64,000 bases of DNA from Giardia intestinalis (Eukaryota). Each line of letters starts with the position of its first letter. Position 1 is the first letter of the stretch. The notes beneath the pieces are model-generated. The model saw only the letters and a program-made list of their open reading frames with translations, was not told where the DNA came from and searched no databases. Of the stretch, positions 1 to 9,500 are shown piece by piece. The stretch lies in NCBI GenBank assembly GCA_000002435.2, contig CM018791.1; one strand, 5' to 3'. Position numbers and translations under genes: made by a program.

Positions 1-244
1 CCATGTGGAGGACCCGGTAGTAGAGGGCCGACCCCCGCAGCGTGGGCCCCAGGGCGCAGGCGGGGGAGAACGCGTAGAGCCCGCCCTCCTCGCTGTGGAA
101 GATGTCGCTGCTCTGGATGGCCGCCTCGAACGTGAAGCGGCGCCGGAAGACCTCCCGGAGGTACTCGTCGGGGGGCAGCGCGGCGAGGAACGCGGACGTC
201 CCCCGGCTCCCCCCGGCCGCGATGCTGTGGCCCACCGGGGGCAG
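1..244 (-). CDS. Hypothetical protein, N-terminal 81 codons (the gene runs off the left window edge). Extreme GC3 codon bias (MLPPVGHSIAAGGSRGTSAFLAALPPDEYLREVFRRRF...).
   Basis: Minus-strand frame from ATG at 244 is open to position 1, with third codon positions almost all G/C. An in-frame TGA at 278-280 lies just upstream of the ATG. The ~75% GC block ends exactly there. The competing plus-strand ORF 5..316 has mixed GC3 and runs into AT-rich spacer. Confidence 0.45.
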   Translation of the reverse strand, partial: MPPVGHSIAAGGSRGTSAFLAALPPDEYLREVFRRRFTFEAAIQSSDIFHSEEGGLYAFSPACALGPTLRGSALYYRVLHM

Positions 245-683
245 CATGTCCGAGACGTCCCGCGTGCTGAGGATGACTCTTCACCGATATTCCTTAGTAA
301 GCTTAGTCAATGGTAAGTATAACGTCTTGTAGACGACGAGTGACAGTAATTCACCGTGTTTTCCCAGGGCCTCTAAACTAAGAGAGCCTGACAACAAAGT
401 GCTCAAATTGCGGTTCAAGGCACGCATTATGAAGACATTGGCATCGCCGCTTTTTTAGGTTTCTGCGCCGGCCTACTAGGCAGTCAAAATAGTACAAAAA
501 TTTCCAAATTGATGTTTAAACAATTTTAGATGTGCAAAGACTTTCATCGACCTCTTACTGGTTGACAGCGAATAGCTGTTTACACACAGAAATTCCGTTA
601 TTGGTTTTCTTCGATAAATAAATTTCAAGAATCTTCGATTGCGCTGAATAAGTCAATGTTCCTTCAATCGTTGAGAAAAATAA

Positions 684-1478
684 ATGTGCTGTGATGAGGA
701 TGTCATTGCCCTCATCTGCGTGGGTGTCCCGATGGTTGTGTATGCCCTGATTGTAGGGTTCCAGAAAAGGAACCCAGCTGCTGTTGGTCAAGCGCTAAAG
801 ACTTGTTTTAATGACAACAAATCTATATGGAAAAAAGACCCTTTGAAGTGCCTTGCTGGTACTAAATATGGTGGCTTGTTTCTCTTCATAATGATCGTGG
901 CCGTGATCTGCATCATTTACGGGATTGTTGTTCAGATACTCAAATGTATTTTGTGTTGCTGTAATTGTTGTTGCGGGTGCTGCGGGTGCCTCGACTGCTT
1001 CCTCAAGTACGCGTTCCGCATCGGGGTCGGCGTCGGGTACCCCTCTTTGATGGATTTTCTTACATATTTGATCTCTGCTTCGGTAGCGAAGAATAACAAC
1101 TGGGTAGACAACAATCTCTCCAAGAGAGGCGCATTCAACAATGCAGTGGGAGGTTACAGTGGCATATCAATGCTATCTCTTGCGGCCGGTTGGGTCTTCA
1201 CTGTGGTCATCGGCTCATTTTTCATCCAGAAAGACAGCTGCGGCCTGAAATTCTTAGGGCTTATTCTAGGTTGTATCGTCGCCTTCGTCATTATCGCAGC
1301 TGTTGTCCCAGCAGATCCTCGTAATTTATACTCTGGTAAAGCCTTTAACAATCAGCTTTTCATTAGCAAGGAAGCCAGGTGGGGCGGCGTTCTCCTCGGC
1401 TTCATCAATGTAGGAGTTTTCACAGGCATGTATGCTGCTGCCCTGTGTTGCTTGAACGGCTGCTGCTGTTGCAAGTAA
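684..1478 (+). CDS. Polycysteine multi-pass membrane protein with about 5 predicted TM helices. Carries Cys tracts CILCCCNCCCGCCGCLDC and CCLNGCCCCK.
   Basis: 264-aa ORF with ATG at 684 in an AT-rich context (GAGAAAAATAAATG). Five hydrophobic 19-24-aa segments. Two juxtamembrane poly-Cys tracts. Confidence 0.6.
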   Translation: MCCDEDVIALICVGVPMVVYALIVGFQKRNPAAVGQALKTCFNDNKSIWKKDPLKCLAGTKYGGLFLFIMIVAVICIIYGIVVQILKCILCCCNCCCGCCGCLDCFLKYAFRIGVGVGYPSLMDFLTYLISASVAKNNNWVDNNLSKRGAFNNAVGGYSGISMLSLAAGWVFTVVIGSFFIQKDSCGLKFLGLILGCIVAFVIIAAVVPADPRNLYSGKAFNNQLFISKEARWGGVLLGFINVGVFTGMYAAALCCLNGCCCCK

Positions 1479-1531
1479 ATAGTGGTGTCCCCGTGCAGAC
1501 TTTTCTTTTTGACAAAAATCACGGTTGCTAG

Positions 1532-2524
1532 ATGGACATCGGGGTCGCAGTTCAGGCTCTAGAGGTGAGTCTGAGAGGCTTCTGCTACCCAGCGATGTAC
1601 CTCAACGCGGACAGATTCAGCACAGGAGCATCTGAGGACCTGGTGGCACTTGTCGCCCAGATTCTTGAGCGGTGCCACCCTTCCATCCAAGCGTACCTCT
1701 CAACGAAGGGTTATTATACACCACTAACTAAGTTCACTGGGCCCGACTGGTACAGGTGTTTTGAGTCATTCATGCGTGAAAACATCCATACTGTTGAAAA
1801 CTCATCATCTGTGCCTATACTCCCGTCATCGTCGTGGGAGAAGCATTCCTTTGCCGTCGCTAAGGTCAAGGAGGTACTGGGGTTTGTGCGGATACTCAAA
1901 GCAGCCGTGCCGAAGAAGAAGCGATCTCTTCAGGAGCACCGACCGACCTCCAGCCTGACTCAAGCACTGAAGACCAGTCGGGTTGGGCTAGAGGGCGTGG
2001 AGCTCACAACGCCTGAAGATTGCAACTCTAAGCAGATGCTCCGTTTTGCATTCGATGGAGCAGACTCAACAGATTCTCTCGAAGATGCAATAGATAACGA
2101 GAGTCATCACTATCACATGAGCAGTAGAATCACAGAATATCAAAGGAATAGCGATCAATCTAAGGCACCCAGTGGACAGTTCAGTGACAGCCATGATCGT
2201 GCCCGTTACAGAGGCAAGAGTGACAGAGACTCTGCTGATACTGCTCGCTCCCCTCGATCACTGCACTCACTTCAGGCCCCCAGCAACCTGAGTGCAAGAC
2301 GCAGTGCACAATCGTTGGATTGCCTACCGCAATATAGCCGGCCATCGTCTTCCAGGAGAGGCTCAGTCCTCACGGAGCTGAATGAGCATACTATCAGAGA
2401 TGTATTCTACGAGGTGGAGAAGGCTGTGCATGGAATCCAGGTCTTGAATGCAAAGGTGGATGCAGTATTTGGGAGACTCGATTTGCTGGAGCAGAGATTA
2501 GACCAAATATTCACTAAGCTCTGA
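1532..2524 (+). CDS. Hypothetical protein with a Ser/Arg-rich middle and a C-terminal coiled-coil.
   Basis: 330-aa ORF with ATG at 1532. The poly(A) signal AGTAAAT lies 20 nt after the TGA stop. Protein-like N-terminus and a heptad-patterned C-terminus. Confidence 0.55.
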   Translation: MDIGVAVQALEVSLRGFCYPAMYLNADRFSTGASEDLVALVAQILERCHPSIQAYLSTKGYYTPLTKFTGPDWYRCFESFMRENIHTVENSSSVPILPSSSWEKHSFAVAKVKEVLGFVRILKAAVPKKKRSLQEHRPTSSLTQALKTSRVGLEGVELTTPEDCNSKQMLRFAFDGADSTDSLEDAIDNESHHYHMSSRITEYQRNSDQSKAPSGQFSDSHDRARYRGKSDRDSADTARSPRSLHSLQAPSNLSARRSAQSLDCLPQYSRPSSSRRGSVLTELNEHTIRDVFYEVEKAVHGIQVLNAKVDAVFGRLDLLEQRLDQIFTKL

Positions 2525-5440: not shown

Positions 5441-6424
5441 ATGCCGTTCAAGCAGACCCGCCACTTGCTCACTATCTCTGCCCTCTGCCCCAAGGAGCTT
5501 GCGTACCTTATCGACCGTGCGCTCGACATGAAGAAGAACCCCGCGAAGTACACTGCGCGTGCGGCCAACAAGACCCTGCTCGCCTTCTTCGCCAAGCCGT
5601 CACTCCGCACACGCGTCTCCTTGGAGACAGCCATGACGCGCCTTGGCGGGCACGCGATCTACTACGAGCTCGGCGCAAACTCCAACGTTGGCGGCAAGGA
5701 GACCGTCCAGGACACCGCTGAGGTCTTCTCGCGCATGGTGGACATCTGCACAGCCCGCCTGGCCACCAAGGAGATGATGAGGGAGATGGCCCAGCACGCT
5801 TCTGTGCCCTGCATCAACGCCCTTGACGACTTCGGCCACCCGCTCCAGATGGTCTGCGACTTCATGACCATCAAGGAGAAGTTCACGGCGGCAGGCGAGT
5901 TCTCCAACGGCTTCAAGGGCATAAAGTTTGCATACTGCGGGGACTCCATGAACAACGTCACATACGACCTCATGCGTGGCTGCGCCCTGCTTGGCATGGA
6001 GTGCCACGTTTGCTGCCCTGACCACAAGGACTTCAAGCCCATCAAGGAAGTCATCGATGAGTGCGAGGAGATCATCGCAAAGCACGGCACCGGCGGCTCC
6101 ATTAAAATCTTCCATGACTGCAAGAAGGGGTGCGAGGGCGTCGACGTCGTCTACACAGACTCGTGGATGAGCTACCACATCACCAAGGAGCAGAAGGAGG
6201 CCCGCCTCAAGGTTCTCACGCCGTTCCAGGTCGACGATGCCGTCATGGCCGTCACCTCCAAGCGCAGCATCTTCATGAACTGCCTTCCAGCGACCCGCGG
6301 TGAGGAGCAGACGGCGTCTGTCATTGACGGGCCCAAGTCCGTCTGCTACGACGAGGCCGGGAATCGCCTGCACTCGGCTATGGCGGTCCTCGACTTCTTC
6401 TTGCATGACTGCAAGATGGAGTGA
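5441..6424 (+). CDS. OCT: Ornithine carbamoyltransferase (arginine dihydrolase pathway).
   Basis: SLRTRVS (STRTR carbamoyl-phosphate motif), HPLQ (HPxQ), DSMNNV and NCLP (the HCLP ornithine-binding motif). It aligns along its length to OTC/ArgF. GC3-rich codon usage. Start context GAAAATTAAAATG. Confidence 0.93.
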   Translation: MPFKQTRHLLTISALCPKELAYLIDRALDMKKNPAKYTARAANKTLLAFFAKPSLRTRVSLETAMTRLGGHAIYYELGANSNVGGKETVQDTAEVFSRMVDICTARLATKEMMREMAQHASVPCINALDDFGHPLQMVCDFMTIKEKFTAAGEFSNGFKGIKFAYCGDSMNNVTYDLMRGCALLGMECHVCCPDHKDFKPIKEVIDECEEIIAKHGTGGSIKIFHDCKKGCEGVDVVYTDSWMSYHITKEQKEARLKVLTPFQVDDAVMAVTSKRSIFMNCLPATRGEEQTASVIDGPKSVCYDEAGNRLHSAMAVLDFFLHDCKME

Positions 6425-6450: not shown

Positions 6451-6540
6451 GGTCCCGTTCTCTTTTTTCCTCTGTCTACATCTACAGCGGGCGACATTGC
6501 CTCAGTCCCGATGAAAAAACAAGCCGAGAGCCAAATTTTC

Positions 6541-9500
6541 ATGTACCTGTCAGGGGTGGAAATCAAGAACTTCCGCTCCATTGTCCATACATCTGTTACG
6601 GGACTCCATCCGGGAATCAACGTATTCATAGGTATCAATGGCGCAGGGAAATCGAATTTTTATAGTGCAATACTTTTTGCCCTGATGGACCCCCTCTACG
6701 ACCTGAAGACAATTAACAGGGCCCAGATACTATCCAATGACGCAAAAACTAAGTCCGGCTATGTAAAGCTAATTATAGATTTGGAAGGCGCTGCAGTAGG
6801 GGACTTCCAGGGAAGGGTATCCATCTCCAGACACTTCACAATAACTACAGACAGCTTCTATTTAAATGACGTACTGGTAACCAGCGATAAGGTTGCCAAT
6901 TTCCTTTCGATTATGGGATTTAACCCCAGTTCTCAAGGATACACCTTTGCAGTCCAACAGAGTAAGGTTACTAGCCTTGCAATGTCGGCCCCAAAGGCAC
7001 TCCTCGATGCATTTAACTCCAGCACTGGCACATGGGAGTACGATACGCGTAAGCAGGACGCTCTAGAAAAACTCAAAGCAGCAAGAGAAGAGAGGGAAGA
7101 GGCACAGCAAATTTATATGCAGCTTAAAGGACGATGCAGCAGACTAACCGAGCGGATGAATAAGAACAAGGAATACCTCAAGCTAATGGCAGAAAGGAGG
7201 GCTGCTGAGCACGCCCTTGCAACTCTTACTTATGATGCTCTCCAAGAGCAACGTGCACGATTAGAAACGCAAAAGGAAGCGCTCATAGAGGATTGCAAAG
7301 CCAAACGTACCCAAATAGATGCAATAAGAGCGGAGATTAATGTGCTTACAAACGAGCTCACTCCACTACAGCTTCAGGAGGATAAGGCCCTGGCAGCAGA
7401 AAGAGCGGTTAATGACCATGTTTACTACCTTGTCGATTCATGCCAATACCTAAGCTCTTTCTGCACTGCTAAGTCACAAAGGAGCCAAGAGCAGGAGGAC
7501 AGTGCAACCATAAGACGGCGTAGTGCACAGGACGCCCTTGAGGAAGCGATCTTACGCGAGCGATCTCTTTTGGATGAGCTAGCCACGCTCAGAAATGCAC
7601 AGTACTCTCTTTCATCATTTATAAGGAAGCAGAAGATCATGCTGGAAGGCCAGGAGGCTAATAAACGTGAGTCTCTCATTAAAGAGCTAGAGGATATCCT
7701 TCGAAATCTTATCAACGCAGAAGCAGAGCATGCAGCAATCAAGTCCTTGCAAGAAGAGGTTAAGCAGGAACTAGAATGCATCTCTAAGAAGCTAAATGTC
7801 TGTAAAATGCGAGAGACAGAGATCAATGCTAGTGAGCTCCTTCAGAGGTACACAGAATTCAGTGAGAAAAAGCAGCGACTGAATGTAGATCTATCCATGA
7901 AAGTAAAGAGCTTAAATGAGGCCGAAAACAAGGTTGTGCATGAAGAGTATCAGCTTTCGCAACTTACGCGTGAGTTTCTTGACCTGGCGCCTGCGAATCT
8001 GGCAGCTGGCGCTAACTTGTGCCTCTCTGCAATCAGGGAAGCAAAAATAAGCGGGTTCAGGGGGTTTCTTGCTGAACACATAAACGCAGCCGTGGGATCT
8101 TATCCAGCACTAGAGTCCGCTATAGGATCCACCGGGCTTTACTCCTTATTAGTAGAAAAACGCGAAACAGCTACAGAGATAATGCGGCACATTCGTCAGA
8201 GAACATCATCTTCGCCATTGTCTGGCAAAGCAAACTTTATTGTTCTTGATGCAGTCTCTCCGCCTTGTTTGCAGGAGATTAACAGTAACTGTGTTCCCTT
8301 GGCTTCTCTGGTAAGCACAGTGGATGACACTAGACCAGCAATCCTGCAAGCTTTGGGCACCAGTTACCTGACAAGATCATTGGAGGACGCAGCGAAGTAT
8401 TCCAGTGAGCATAATATCGATTGTTACACAGTCACTGGCGATGTCATACAAGGTTCTGGGGTTGCCATAGGTGGACACCGTAGCTTCAAAAGAATTAAGT
8501 GTGGTGTAGCTTTGGGAATCTCTCGTGAGGCTCTACTTGGAGCATCTCTCACAAAGGGACGAGTGAGCACTGAGATAGAAGAAATAAAGCAAGAGCTCCG
8601 CAATGTTGGTGCAGAGATAACCAAATTGGAGCCAATTGTTTCGCCCTTACAGGAAGAGCTAAGTGGTATTCGCGCAGAGATACTTCCCCTCTCCGGAGAA
8701 CTTACCAAACTGCAAAAGACGGAGACAAAATTGCATGCTGATGAGCAAGAGCTATGTGCGCGAATTAACACACTGTCCCAGATGAAGCAAAGCATGGAGG
8801 ACTCTGTGTCCTCTTTAACTGCAGGCAATAAATTGAACCCGGCAAAGGTGAAACTATTAAGACAGGAGCTGGCTAATAATGAAGCTAACGAAAAGGAGAT
8901 AGAAAAGAAGATAGACACCATCCAGGCTCTGGTAAATAAGGCAGCTGTTGATAGGATGAAAGCAGAGGCAAAAATGCAAAGCATAGACGCTAGTGGGACG
9001 CAGATTGAGTTGGGAATAAAAGAAAGAGGCGATGTTGATGCGCAGATGATGTCTTTGTTAACGGGGCTGGAGCAAGCTAACCTAGAGGCATTAGAGTTTC
9101 CGTCAGACAGAGATGGCTTAGCCCCCTTTGTAGAAAATCTTAGAACATTGAGCGAGAAGCTGAAGGACGCCATTAGCAACAAAGAGGAACTCGATGCTGT
9201 TGCACGATTGTCGGCTAAGTTTCTATCTGCCCTGACTGAGTTATCCGATAGTACAAAGGTGACTGTGGCCAATTGTAAAGAGACAACCAGTCGACAAAGG
9301 CAGAAAATAGTTAACAAGGAGGCAGAAATAGAAGATCTCAACCGTCAATTGGAGACAATTGCCATGGGATTTGAAGCCCTTGATCTGGAAAACAATGATG
9401 CTCTTCAGCATTATAAGAAGGCCGAGATTGCGCTAAGAGAGATAGCTGCCCCCACAGCAGATGAGATGGAGGCCCTTCAGCGCGAGAAAGCAGCAGCCAA

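Follow-up and report, generated by a model that had tools for sequence, protein, structure and literature searches.

A truncated, GC-saturated duplicate of the PIP5K gene in Giardia intestinalis and the probable origin of its GC content in GC-biased gene conversion

GC-biased gene conversion is known from mammalian histone and Hsp70 paralogues, from the palindromes of sex chromosomes, and from arrays of ribosomal DNA (rDNA). Here, a likely case is described from the protist Giardia intestinalis, at the left edge of a 64,000-nt stretch of contig CM018791.1 (assembly GCA_000002435.2; this whole stretch is called the window below). A sharply bounded, GC-rich block located there is part of a 5'-truncated duplicate of the gene for phosphatidylinositol-4-phosphate 5-kinase (PIP5K), whose GC saturation is likely to have resulted from concerted evolution of the two copies accompanied by GC-biased gene conversion between them.

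Two published observations on Giardia are closest to this locus. Genes inside inferred gene-conversion tracts of assemblage A have a median GC content of 0.541 versus 0.488 (PMC12669663). Moreover, near-identical inverted gene pairs have been described in the WB genome; in the quoted part of that preprint, which cites the 2020 WB reassembly, the pairs are arranged tail-to-tail or head-to-head and consist mainly of VSP and other cysteine-rich genes (bioRxiv 10.1101/2022.03.07.483299). GC-biased gene conversion is also mentioned in a paper on the Giardia ribosome, with reference to its GC-rich rRNA (PMC10123126).

A truncated PIP5K copy at the left edge of the window

Positions 1-270 of the window have a GC content of 73.3% (73% over 1-275), versus 49.0% across the whole window. 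An initial annotation, made from the sequence without database searches, had noticed this sharply bounded edge, and the block is indeed unmatched elsewhere in the window: the highest other 270-nt stretch, inside the gene for ornithine carbamoyltransferase (OCT) at approx. 5539, reaches 0.644, and none elsewhere reaches 0.68. The proportions of G/C in the three phases of the block are 0.66, 0.99, and 0.53. The second value, 92 of 93 positions, belongs to the third codon positions of a minus-strand frame, in agreement with the near-100% G/C content at third codon positions (GC3) first reported for it; by our own arithmetic, the chance of such a count at 73% GC is about 0.73^92, or roughly 1e-13. 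Other genes in the window have a GC3 of 0.45-0.64, with the exception of OCT (5441-6424, plus strand), which has the highest value of the complete genes (0.87). Even in comparison with OCT, whose best 93-codon stretch has a GC3 of 0.90, the block is an outlier.

The strand, the frame, and the start codon were assigned correctly, the minus-strand ATG being located at 244-246. High-GC3 codons, however, extend 10 codons upstream of this ATG, to approx. 275-277, and the compositional block therefore begins before it. The TGA that closes the frame upstream lies at 281-283 (minus strand), in the unique flank just outside the duplication, and not at 278-280 as initially stated, where the frame reads AGA. 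A plus-strand open reading frame (ORF) at 5-316 (103 aa, GTG start), proposed as a rival to the minus-strand frame, is not a gene but the antisense shadow of the high-GC3 frame, since its first rather than its third codon positions are 99% G/C. An origin of the block in a truncated GC-rich rDNA unit or another structured RNA was also considered and rejected: a search of the whole window against Rfam gave nothing at the gathering threshold, and ribosomal RNA would not explain the strict 3-nt periodicity. A permissive Rfam search of positions 1-600 returned only a chance miRNA match (E=3), and a tRNA search of the window found none.

The sequence context to the left of the window was recovered from other assemblies by exact look-up of the neighbouring proteins. 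In isolate DH (assemblage A2; AHGT01000002.1, here locus L011, in which a position equals the window position plus 7438), this leftward extension, which the initial annotation had recommended, recovers the full minus-strand ORF of 157 aa (L011 7212-7685) and identifies it as a PIP5K copy; the early closure just beyond the window edge that would have spoken against the gene call is absent, as the ORF runs for 157 codons. Window positions 1-275 align in inverted orientation with the full-length DH PIP5K gene (L011 3978-4252) with 99.6% identity, i.e., one mismatch in 275, and the homology, like its boundary, is observed directly: it ends at window position 275. The full-length parent is the resident Giardia PIP5K (WB KAE8303018.1 / XP_001710017.1; 506 aa, PF01504). 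The copy consists of its last 166 codons, beginning at residue 341; residues 341-431 are visible in the window (1-275, minus strand), where they form the outer end of the duplicated segment, and the remainder continues past the left window edge. The ORF itself, GL50803_112368 (XP_001709973.1; visible at 1-246, minus strand), begins at residue 350, its ATG being the internal codon for methionine 350 (Met350) of PIP5K, and the 82 amino acids encoded from this ATG are identical to WB PIP5K residues 350-431. What had been taken for the 5' end of a gene is an internal piece of PIP5K. The WB proteins encoded by the truncated and the full-length copy share 156 of 157 residues, and a Gly>Glu codon distinguishes them.

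Database labels for the product differ: the WB entry reads "Hypothetical protein GL50803_112368" in an older annotation, and the DH entry (ESU39537.1) reads "Phosphatidylinositol-4-phosphate 5-kinase." The DH 157-aa ORF matches PF01504 with E=3.4e-12 and 46.7 bits (cut-off 27 bits), but the match is limited to residues 76-128 of 157, corresponding to profile positions 234-286 of 288. In particular, the catalytic core of the parent that aligns with solved PI5P4K structures (PIP5K residues 131-289) is absent, and the copy does not contain a complete PIPK catalytic domain with its N-lobe, ATP-binding segment, and core bearing the DLKGS and MDYSLL-type motifs. With residues 1-340 missing, what remains is a piece of a PIPK family member and not a second kinase gene. 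The early remark that the encoded N-terminus matched nothing holds for the visible residues taken alone. Searches of Pfam and of PDB sequences with the visible 92-93 aa gave no significant match, the sole stretch that Pfam recognises being located outside the window, and a word-index search of 5.8 billion proteins with the same fragment found none either. It does not hold for the product, which is the C-terminal part of PIP5K; the word-index result is a false negative, as identical 157-aa and 506-aa proteins are present in the same collection. Short queries skewed by GC pressure can be missed by word-index searches, and such a null result should not be read as evidence of an orphan.

It is quite improbable that the truncated copy is functional in its own right, for example, as a 157-aa regulatory or dominant-negative fragment that includes the activation loop and the C-terminus of PIP5K, with its frame kept open by selection. 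Such a role would be compatible with the conversion mechanism, and it is in line with a frame that is intact in WB and DH and, within the 205 nt available, in P15 (assemblage E), with the 157-aa products called on 11-13 Logan contigs, and with the annotation of the DH product as PIP5K. However, an intact frame is expected anyway if the copy is continually overwritten from a selected full-length donor; moreover, the WB ORF is listed only once, without a current NCBI source, the ATG appears to have no promoter-like AT-rich context next to it, and the copy, in which only 53 residues match Pfam, is devoid of the catalytic core. In all likelihood, the truncated copy is a relic of a gene in which the open frame from Met350 persists passively, and it probably has no function.

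The duplication reaches well beyond the window. In DH, the full-length PIP5K gene is located at L011 2959-4479, on the opposite strand and 2.7 kb from the 157-aa ORF. The duplicated unit of approx. 1.27 kb forms two inverted arms (L011 3978-5252 and 7713-6451) that lie about 1.2 kb apart, and it comprises the last 166 PIP5K codons, a 12-nt intergenic spacer, and a convergent gene for a cysteine-cluster transmembrane (Cys-TM) protein of 248-252 aa. The outer edge of the duplication corresponds to window position 275 and coincides with the GC boundary. Over the outer approx. 1,070 bp, the arms are 93-100% identical per 100 nt, mostly 99-100%, with a GC content of 61-77%, whereas the inner approx. 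200 bp are only 67-74% identical and of ordinary GC content; the homogenised tract is the GC-rich tract, and the diverged inner part is not enriched. Near-identical outer and diverged inner parts point to an old duplication whose outer part has been kept homogeneous. The 12-nt spacer, which lies inside the arm, is also GC-rich. The outer flanks of the two copies are unrelated to each other: on the window side, a unique flank of ordinary GC content (0.33-0.50) occupies positions 276-683, between the duplication edge and the next gene. This flank can be aligned with those of P15 and DH, whereas nothing equivalent is found next to the full-length PIP5K copy.

The sharp compositional boundary, a GC3 resembling that of high-GC bacteria, and the lack of matches for the visible 92 aa might suggest a foreign segment, as was considered at first, introduced by horizontal transfer, contamination, or a chimeric assembly join. 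This is scarcely credible, as the sequence encodes the C-terminus of Giardia's own, vertically inherited PIP5K and the word-index null was false. The closest relatives of PIP5K are all from Giardia (100% identity in assemblage A, 79% in assemblage B, and 44% in G. muris), and its upstream synteny is conserved in assemblages A, B, and E and in G. muris, with a PHTB1-domain protein kept in all four and a 119-aa protein in A, B, and E only. Furthermore, the junction recurs in four independent assemblies and is therefore not an artefact of one of them: a Logan contig matches window 210-1689 with 0 mismatches, an ENA metagenome contig agrees at every position of 135-284, the NCBI DH assembly contains the junction as well, and P15 has an orthologous one. 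Exact-match scans of JGI metagenome contigs with the junction and with conserved block sequence found nothing.

Concerted evolution and the direction of substitution

The relationships among the copies, and their identity within each genome, are a direct observation. In P15, the truncated copy (L024 1-219), located beside the orthologue of the 264-aa gene that follows the flank in the window, is 99.5% identical to the P15 full-length gene. Over the 205 nt common to all five sequences, the P15 truncated and full-length copies show 0 differences and the three assemblage A sequences 1-2 differences among themselves, compared with 9-10 between any A and any E sequence. The copies thus group by genome and not by copy type, although the duplication predates the A/E split, which is the pattern of concerted evolution. 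Other signs of exchange are found nearby. In particular, WB and DH differ by a dense cluster of differences inside the 264-aa gene (window approx. 852-892; L011 approx. 8290-8330), where a patch of about 40 nt in DH matches the DH arm copy of the Cys-TM gene and not the WB or P15 orthologue; this indicates a short ectopic gene-conversion tract. Assemblage B Cys-TM paralogues located on different contigs have identical halves. The A-type ENA contig (L012), identical over window 135-284, has 10 mismatches over 285-400.

The saturation is restricted to the lineages that carry the duplicate, a restriction that is likewise seen directly. In DH (A2) and P15 (E), GC3 along PIP5K is approx. 0.5 in the first 230 or so codons, 0.6-0.8 in the next 100 or so, and 0.97-1.0 in the duplicated part. 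The same codons have a GC3 of 0.43-0.70 in assemblage B (0.50 for PIP5K overall), approx. 0.37 in L021, and 0.57-0.83 in G. muris. L021, a 4.5-kb Logan contig (SRR17450158) from a Giardia-like lineage with 38% GC, was used as an outgroup; its PIP5K is 74% identical to that of assemblage A and syntenic with the PHTB1 and 119-aa genes. In an 18-kb assemblage B locus, PIP5K is followed by a single Cys-TM gene, and no second copy of the PIP5K 3' end was seen. The locus offers a clean natural experiment, in which the same codons have a GC3 of approx. 0.5 as an apparently single copy in B and approx. 1.0 when duplicated in A and E.

The direction of change is also a direct observation. When assemblage A-lineage substitutions were polarised by parsimony against assemblage B and L021, the duplicated part showed 67 changes from weak (A or T) to strong (G or C) pairs (W>S) and 0 in the opposite direction (S>W), versus 66 W>S and 26 S>W in the rest of PIP5K. 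The W>S changes of the duplicated part fall on codon positions 1, 2, and 3 as 17, 10, and 40; the 27 at positions 1 and 2, with 0 S>W, have altered amino acids. Accordingly, GARP residues (Gly, Ala, Arg, and Pro) make up 31% of the duplicated part in A versus 22% in B, and FYMINK residues 20% versus 29%, whereas the rest of the protein shows no difference in either class. The excess of W>S changes at both synonymous and non-synonymous sites is confined to the converted tract, as expected under GC-biased conversion.

These data bear on the suggestion, made in the initial annotation, that the codon bias marks the 5' end of a true gene expressed at a very high level, its codon usage and hence its GC3 being shaped by translational selection. 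A raised GC3 is indeed found in a highly expressed gene of Giardia, as OCT in the window illustrates (0.87), and an ORF with an ATG exists and was formerly annotated. Nevertheless, this explanation is highly improbable. Selection on codon usage would raise GC3 along the whole gene and in its orthologues, and PIP5K shows neither: its GC3 is approx. 1.0 in the duplicated part only, the step coincides with the duplication edge, well inside the gene, and is absent from the assemblage B, L021, and G. muris orthologues. Codon selection cannot produce such a mid-gene step, nor a lineage pattern tied to the duplication edge, nor the 27 amino-acid-altering GC gains, and it is excluded on these grounds. 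Moreover, the 12-nt intergenic spacer inside the arm is GC-rich as well, and the ORF encodes a kinase fragment without the catalytic core. Giardia genes typically have an AT-rich initiator context, whereas the 30 nt before this ATG are GC-rich and derived from coding sequence.

The observations are best explained by the following scenario of GC-biased conversion, which we regard as likely. The segment, found in assemblages A and E, was duplicated before these lineages split, and the two copies have since been homogenised, most likely through repeated ectopic, non-reciprocal gene conversion. A GC bias in this conversion would then have accumulated into a GC3 of nearly 100% and into a drift of the protein towards Gly, Ala, Arg, and Pro; it would presumably have arisen in heteroduplex repair or transmission rather than in mutation. 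Such a bias would act only within the homogenised tract, which would place the GC step exactly at the duplication edge. GC-biased transfer between the copies would account at once for four features: the GC3 of nearly 100%, the abrupt boundary of the block, the altered amino-acid composition, and the close match of the copies in each genome.

Regional alternatives, flanks, and neighbouring genes

Several points weigh against GC-biased conversion between the two copies. First, the PIP5K genes of A and E have a somewhat raised GC3 (0.6-0.8) already in the approx. 300 nt that precede the duplication edge, a region that conversion between the copies cannot reach. Second, the assemblage B Cys-TM gene next to PIP5K already has a GC3 of 0.80, although no repeat is visible in the 18-kb locus, perhaps because B has near-identical paralogues on other contigs. 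Third, the same flank boundary adjoins, in isolate GS (B), a 68%-GC sequence that is unrelated and lacks codon periodicity, so that a regional GC-raising process at this breakpoint is possible. Fourth, the AT-rich outgroup used for parsimony inflates the W>S counts to some extent, and the repair bias itself is a deduction from sequence patterns. Finally, the arrangement of the copies may differ between isolates. Two near-identical inverted copies lie on one contig in DH (AHGT01000002.1), but the order of WB accessions hints at a different spacing and possibly a different orientation: the Cys-TM gene (KAE8303016) and PIP5K (KAE8303018) come approx. 37 genes beyond the 264-aa gene (KAE8302979), and an ENA contig that starts inside the block spans 75,975 nt. 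This suggests that the WB copies may be approx. 76 kb apart, the WB arrangement being read solely from accession order and this ENA contig. The difference between the WB-like and DH spacing could stem from an inversion that is polymorphic between A1 and A2; alternatively, one of the assemblies could be in error, DH perhaps being mis-joined.

Some of these points could be accommodated by a regional process that raises GC content at a rearrangement-prone breakpoint independently of conversion between the two copies, such as a local hotspot of recombination or double-strand breaks, where the four genome copies would undergo allelic GC-biased conversion, or a mutation bias associated with recombination. 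The GC3 shoulder upstream of the duplication edge, the unrelated GC-rich sequence at the same flank boundary in GS, and a 77-80% GC block in the DH spacer with a GC3-like phase of 0.90 are all in its favour. We nonetheless regard it as rather unlikely, since the saturated tract is the near-identical part of the arm and ends at the outer edge on both copies despite their unrelated outer flanks, while the inner, diverged part of the arm has ordinary GC content. In addition, the apparently single-copy PIP5K 3' end of assemblage B is unenriched, even though it lies beside a GC-rich Cys-TM gene at the orthologous position.

The GC-rich sequence between the DH arms (L011 5880-6400; 77-80% GC) has a codon-like periodicity with one phase at 0.90 G/C, and a minus-strand ORF at L011 5858-6151 is CxxC-rich and reminiscent of VSP and high-cysteine proteins. 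This spacer gave no match to Pfam or Rfam and showed no homology to the B locus or to the GC-rich flank of GS. In assemblage B, the flank of the orthologous 264-aa gene switches abruptly to 68%-GC sequence at a point approx. 423 nt upstream of that gene. On the GS contig (L026 1-240), 240 nt of this GC-rich sequence, without similarity to PIP5K, precede the contig end; it matches neither Rfam nor Pfam and is not homologous to the DH spacer or the B locus. The BAH15c1 contig (L025) begins exactly at the same boundary, and the fact that one B assembly breaks there suggests a repeat. The same breakpoint is occupied by a different GC-rich sequence in A/E and in B.

The first complete gene to the right of the flank (684-1478, plus strand) encodes a Cys-TM paralogue of 264 aa (684-1475), identical to KAE8302979.1 / XP_001709974.1 of WB (ATCC 50803), the isolate to which the window belongs. 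It is a diverged third member of the family, the other two being located in the arms (L011 4492-5250, minus strand, and 6453-7199, plus strand), and its GC3 is 0.56 versus 0.79-0.87 for the two arm copies. The family is small and restricted to Giardia; its members, of approx. 245-265 aa, carry the cysteine cluster CCCxCCCGCCGCLDC and a CC(C)K C-terminus. No Pfam family covers them, and only 21 matches were found among the 5.8 billion proteins. One assemblage B member is misnamed "Cell division protein kinase 2." The remaining genes of the window are typical of Giardia and include, besides that for OCT, genes for a kinase, an SMC protein, and an EGF-like high-cysteine protein. A 268-aa ORF antisense to OCT (5600-6406, minus strand; G/C content at first codon positions 0.87) is another shadow and should not be taken for a gene. 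For the 2013-aa protein at the right window end, there is no exact entry on record, and no further repeats that could serve as extra test cases were found inside the window.

Comparison with known systems

The locus has several consequences. For annotation purposes, GL50803_112368 and the DH protein labelled PIP5K both represent a truncated PIP5K duplicate and should be listed neither as an orphan nor as a second kinase. The locus points to strong GC-biased conversion in Giardia, which bears on the use of GC3 as a proxy for expression. Such a bias also matters for the debate on recombination in Giardia and for avoiding false calls of horizontal transfer or positive selection in duplicated regions. 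A broader proposal, which we consider possible rather than probable, is that a bias in ectopic, probably mitotic, conversion drives any homogenised duplicate in Giardia to a GC3 of approx. 100% and remodels the encoded protein, and has done so since the divergence of A/E from B. If this were true and general, the same force would account for the anomalously GC-rich rDNA and the GC-rich VSP regions of Giardia, and loci of this kind would provide a direct, quantifiable read-out of recombination in a lineage of disputed sexuality.

In relation to Giardia PIP5K itself, including that of WB, the element is a near-exact copy of codons 341-431 within the window and continues to the stop codon beyond it; it lacks residues 1-340 and is hence a fragment. 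In DH, it resembles the inverted gene pairs of WB in that near-identical copies lie in inverted orientation around a short spacer containing gene remnants. In contrast to those pairs, the duplicated unit carries a fragment of a housekeeping kinase gene and an uncharacterised Cys-TM gene rather than VSP genes, and one of the copies truncates a gene; a link to GC3 saturation is not among the statements quoted from the preprint (bioRxiv 10.1101/2022.03.07.483299).

With the established cases of GC-biased conversion, the locus shares paralogues that are closer to each other within a lineage than between lineages, a W>S bias that extends to all three codon positions, an enrichment in GC that does not reach beyond the converted tract, and a drift of the protein towards GARP residues. 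It differs from them in being more extreme (GC3 of 0.97-1.0; 67 W>S to 0 S>W), with the bias deduced rather than observed, and in belonging to an organism with little or no documented meiosis. The process itself is already known, and the locus represents a clean Giardia case of it rather than a new kind of element.

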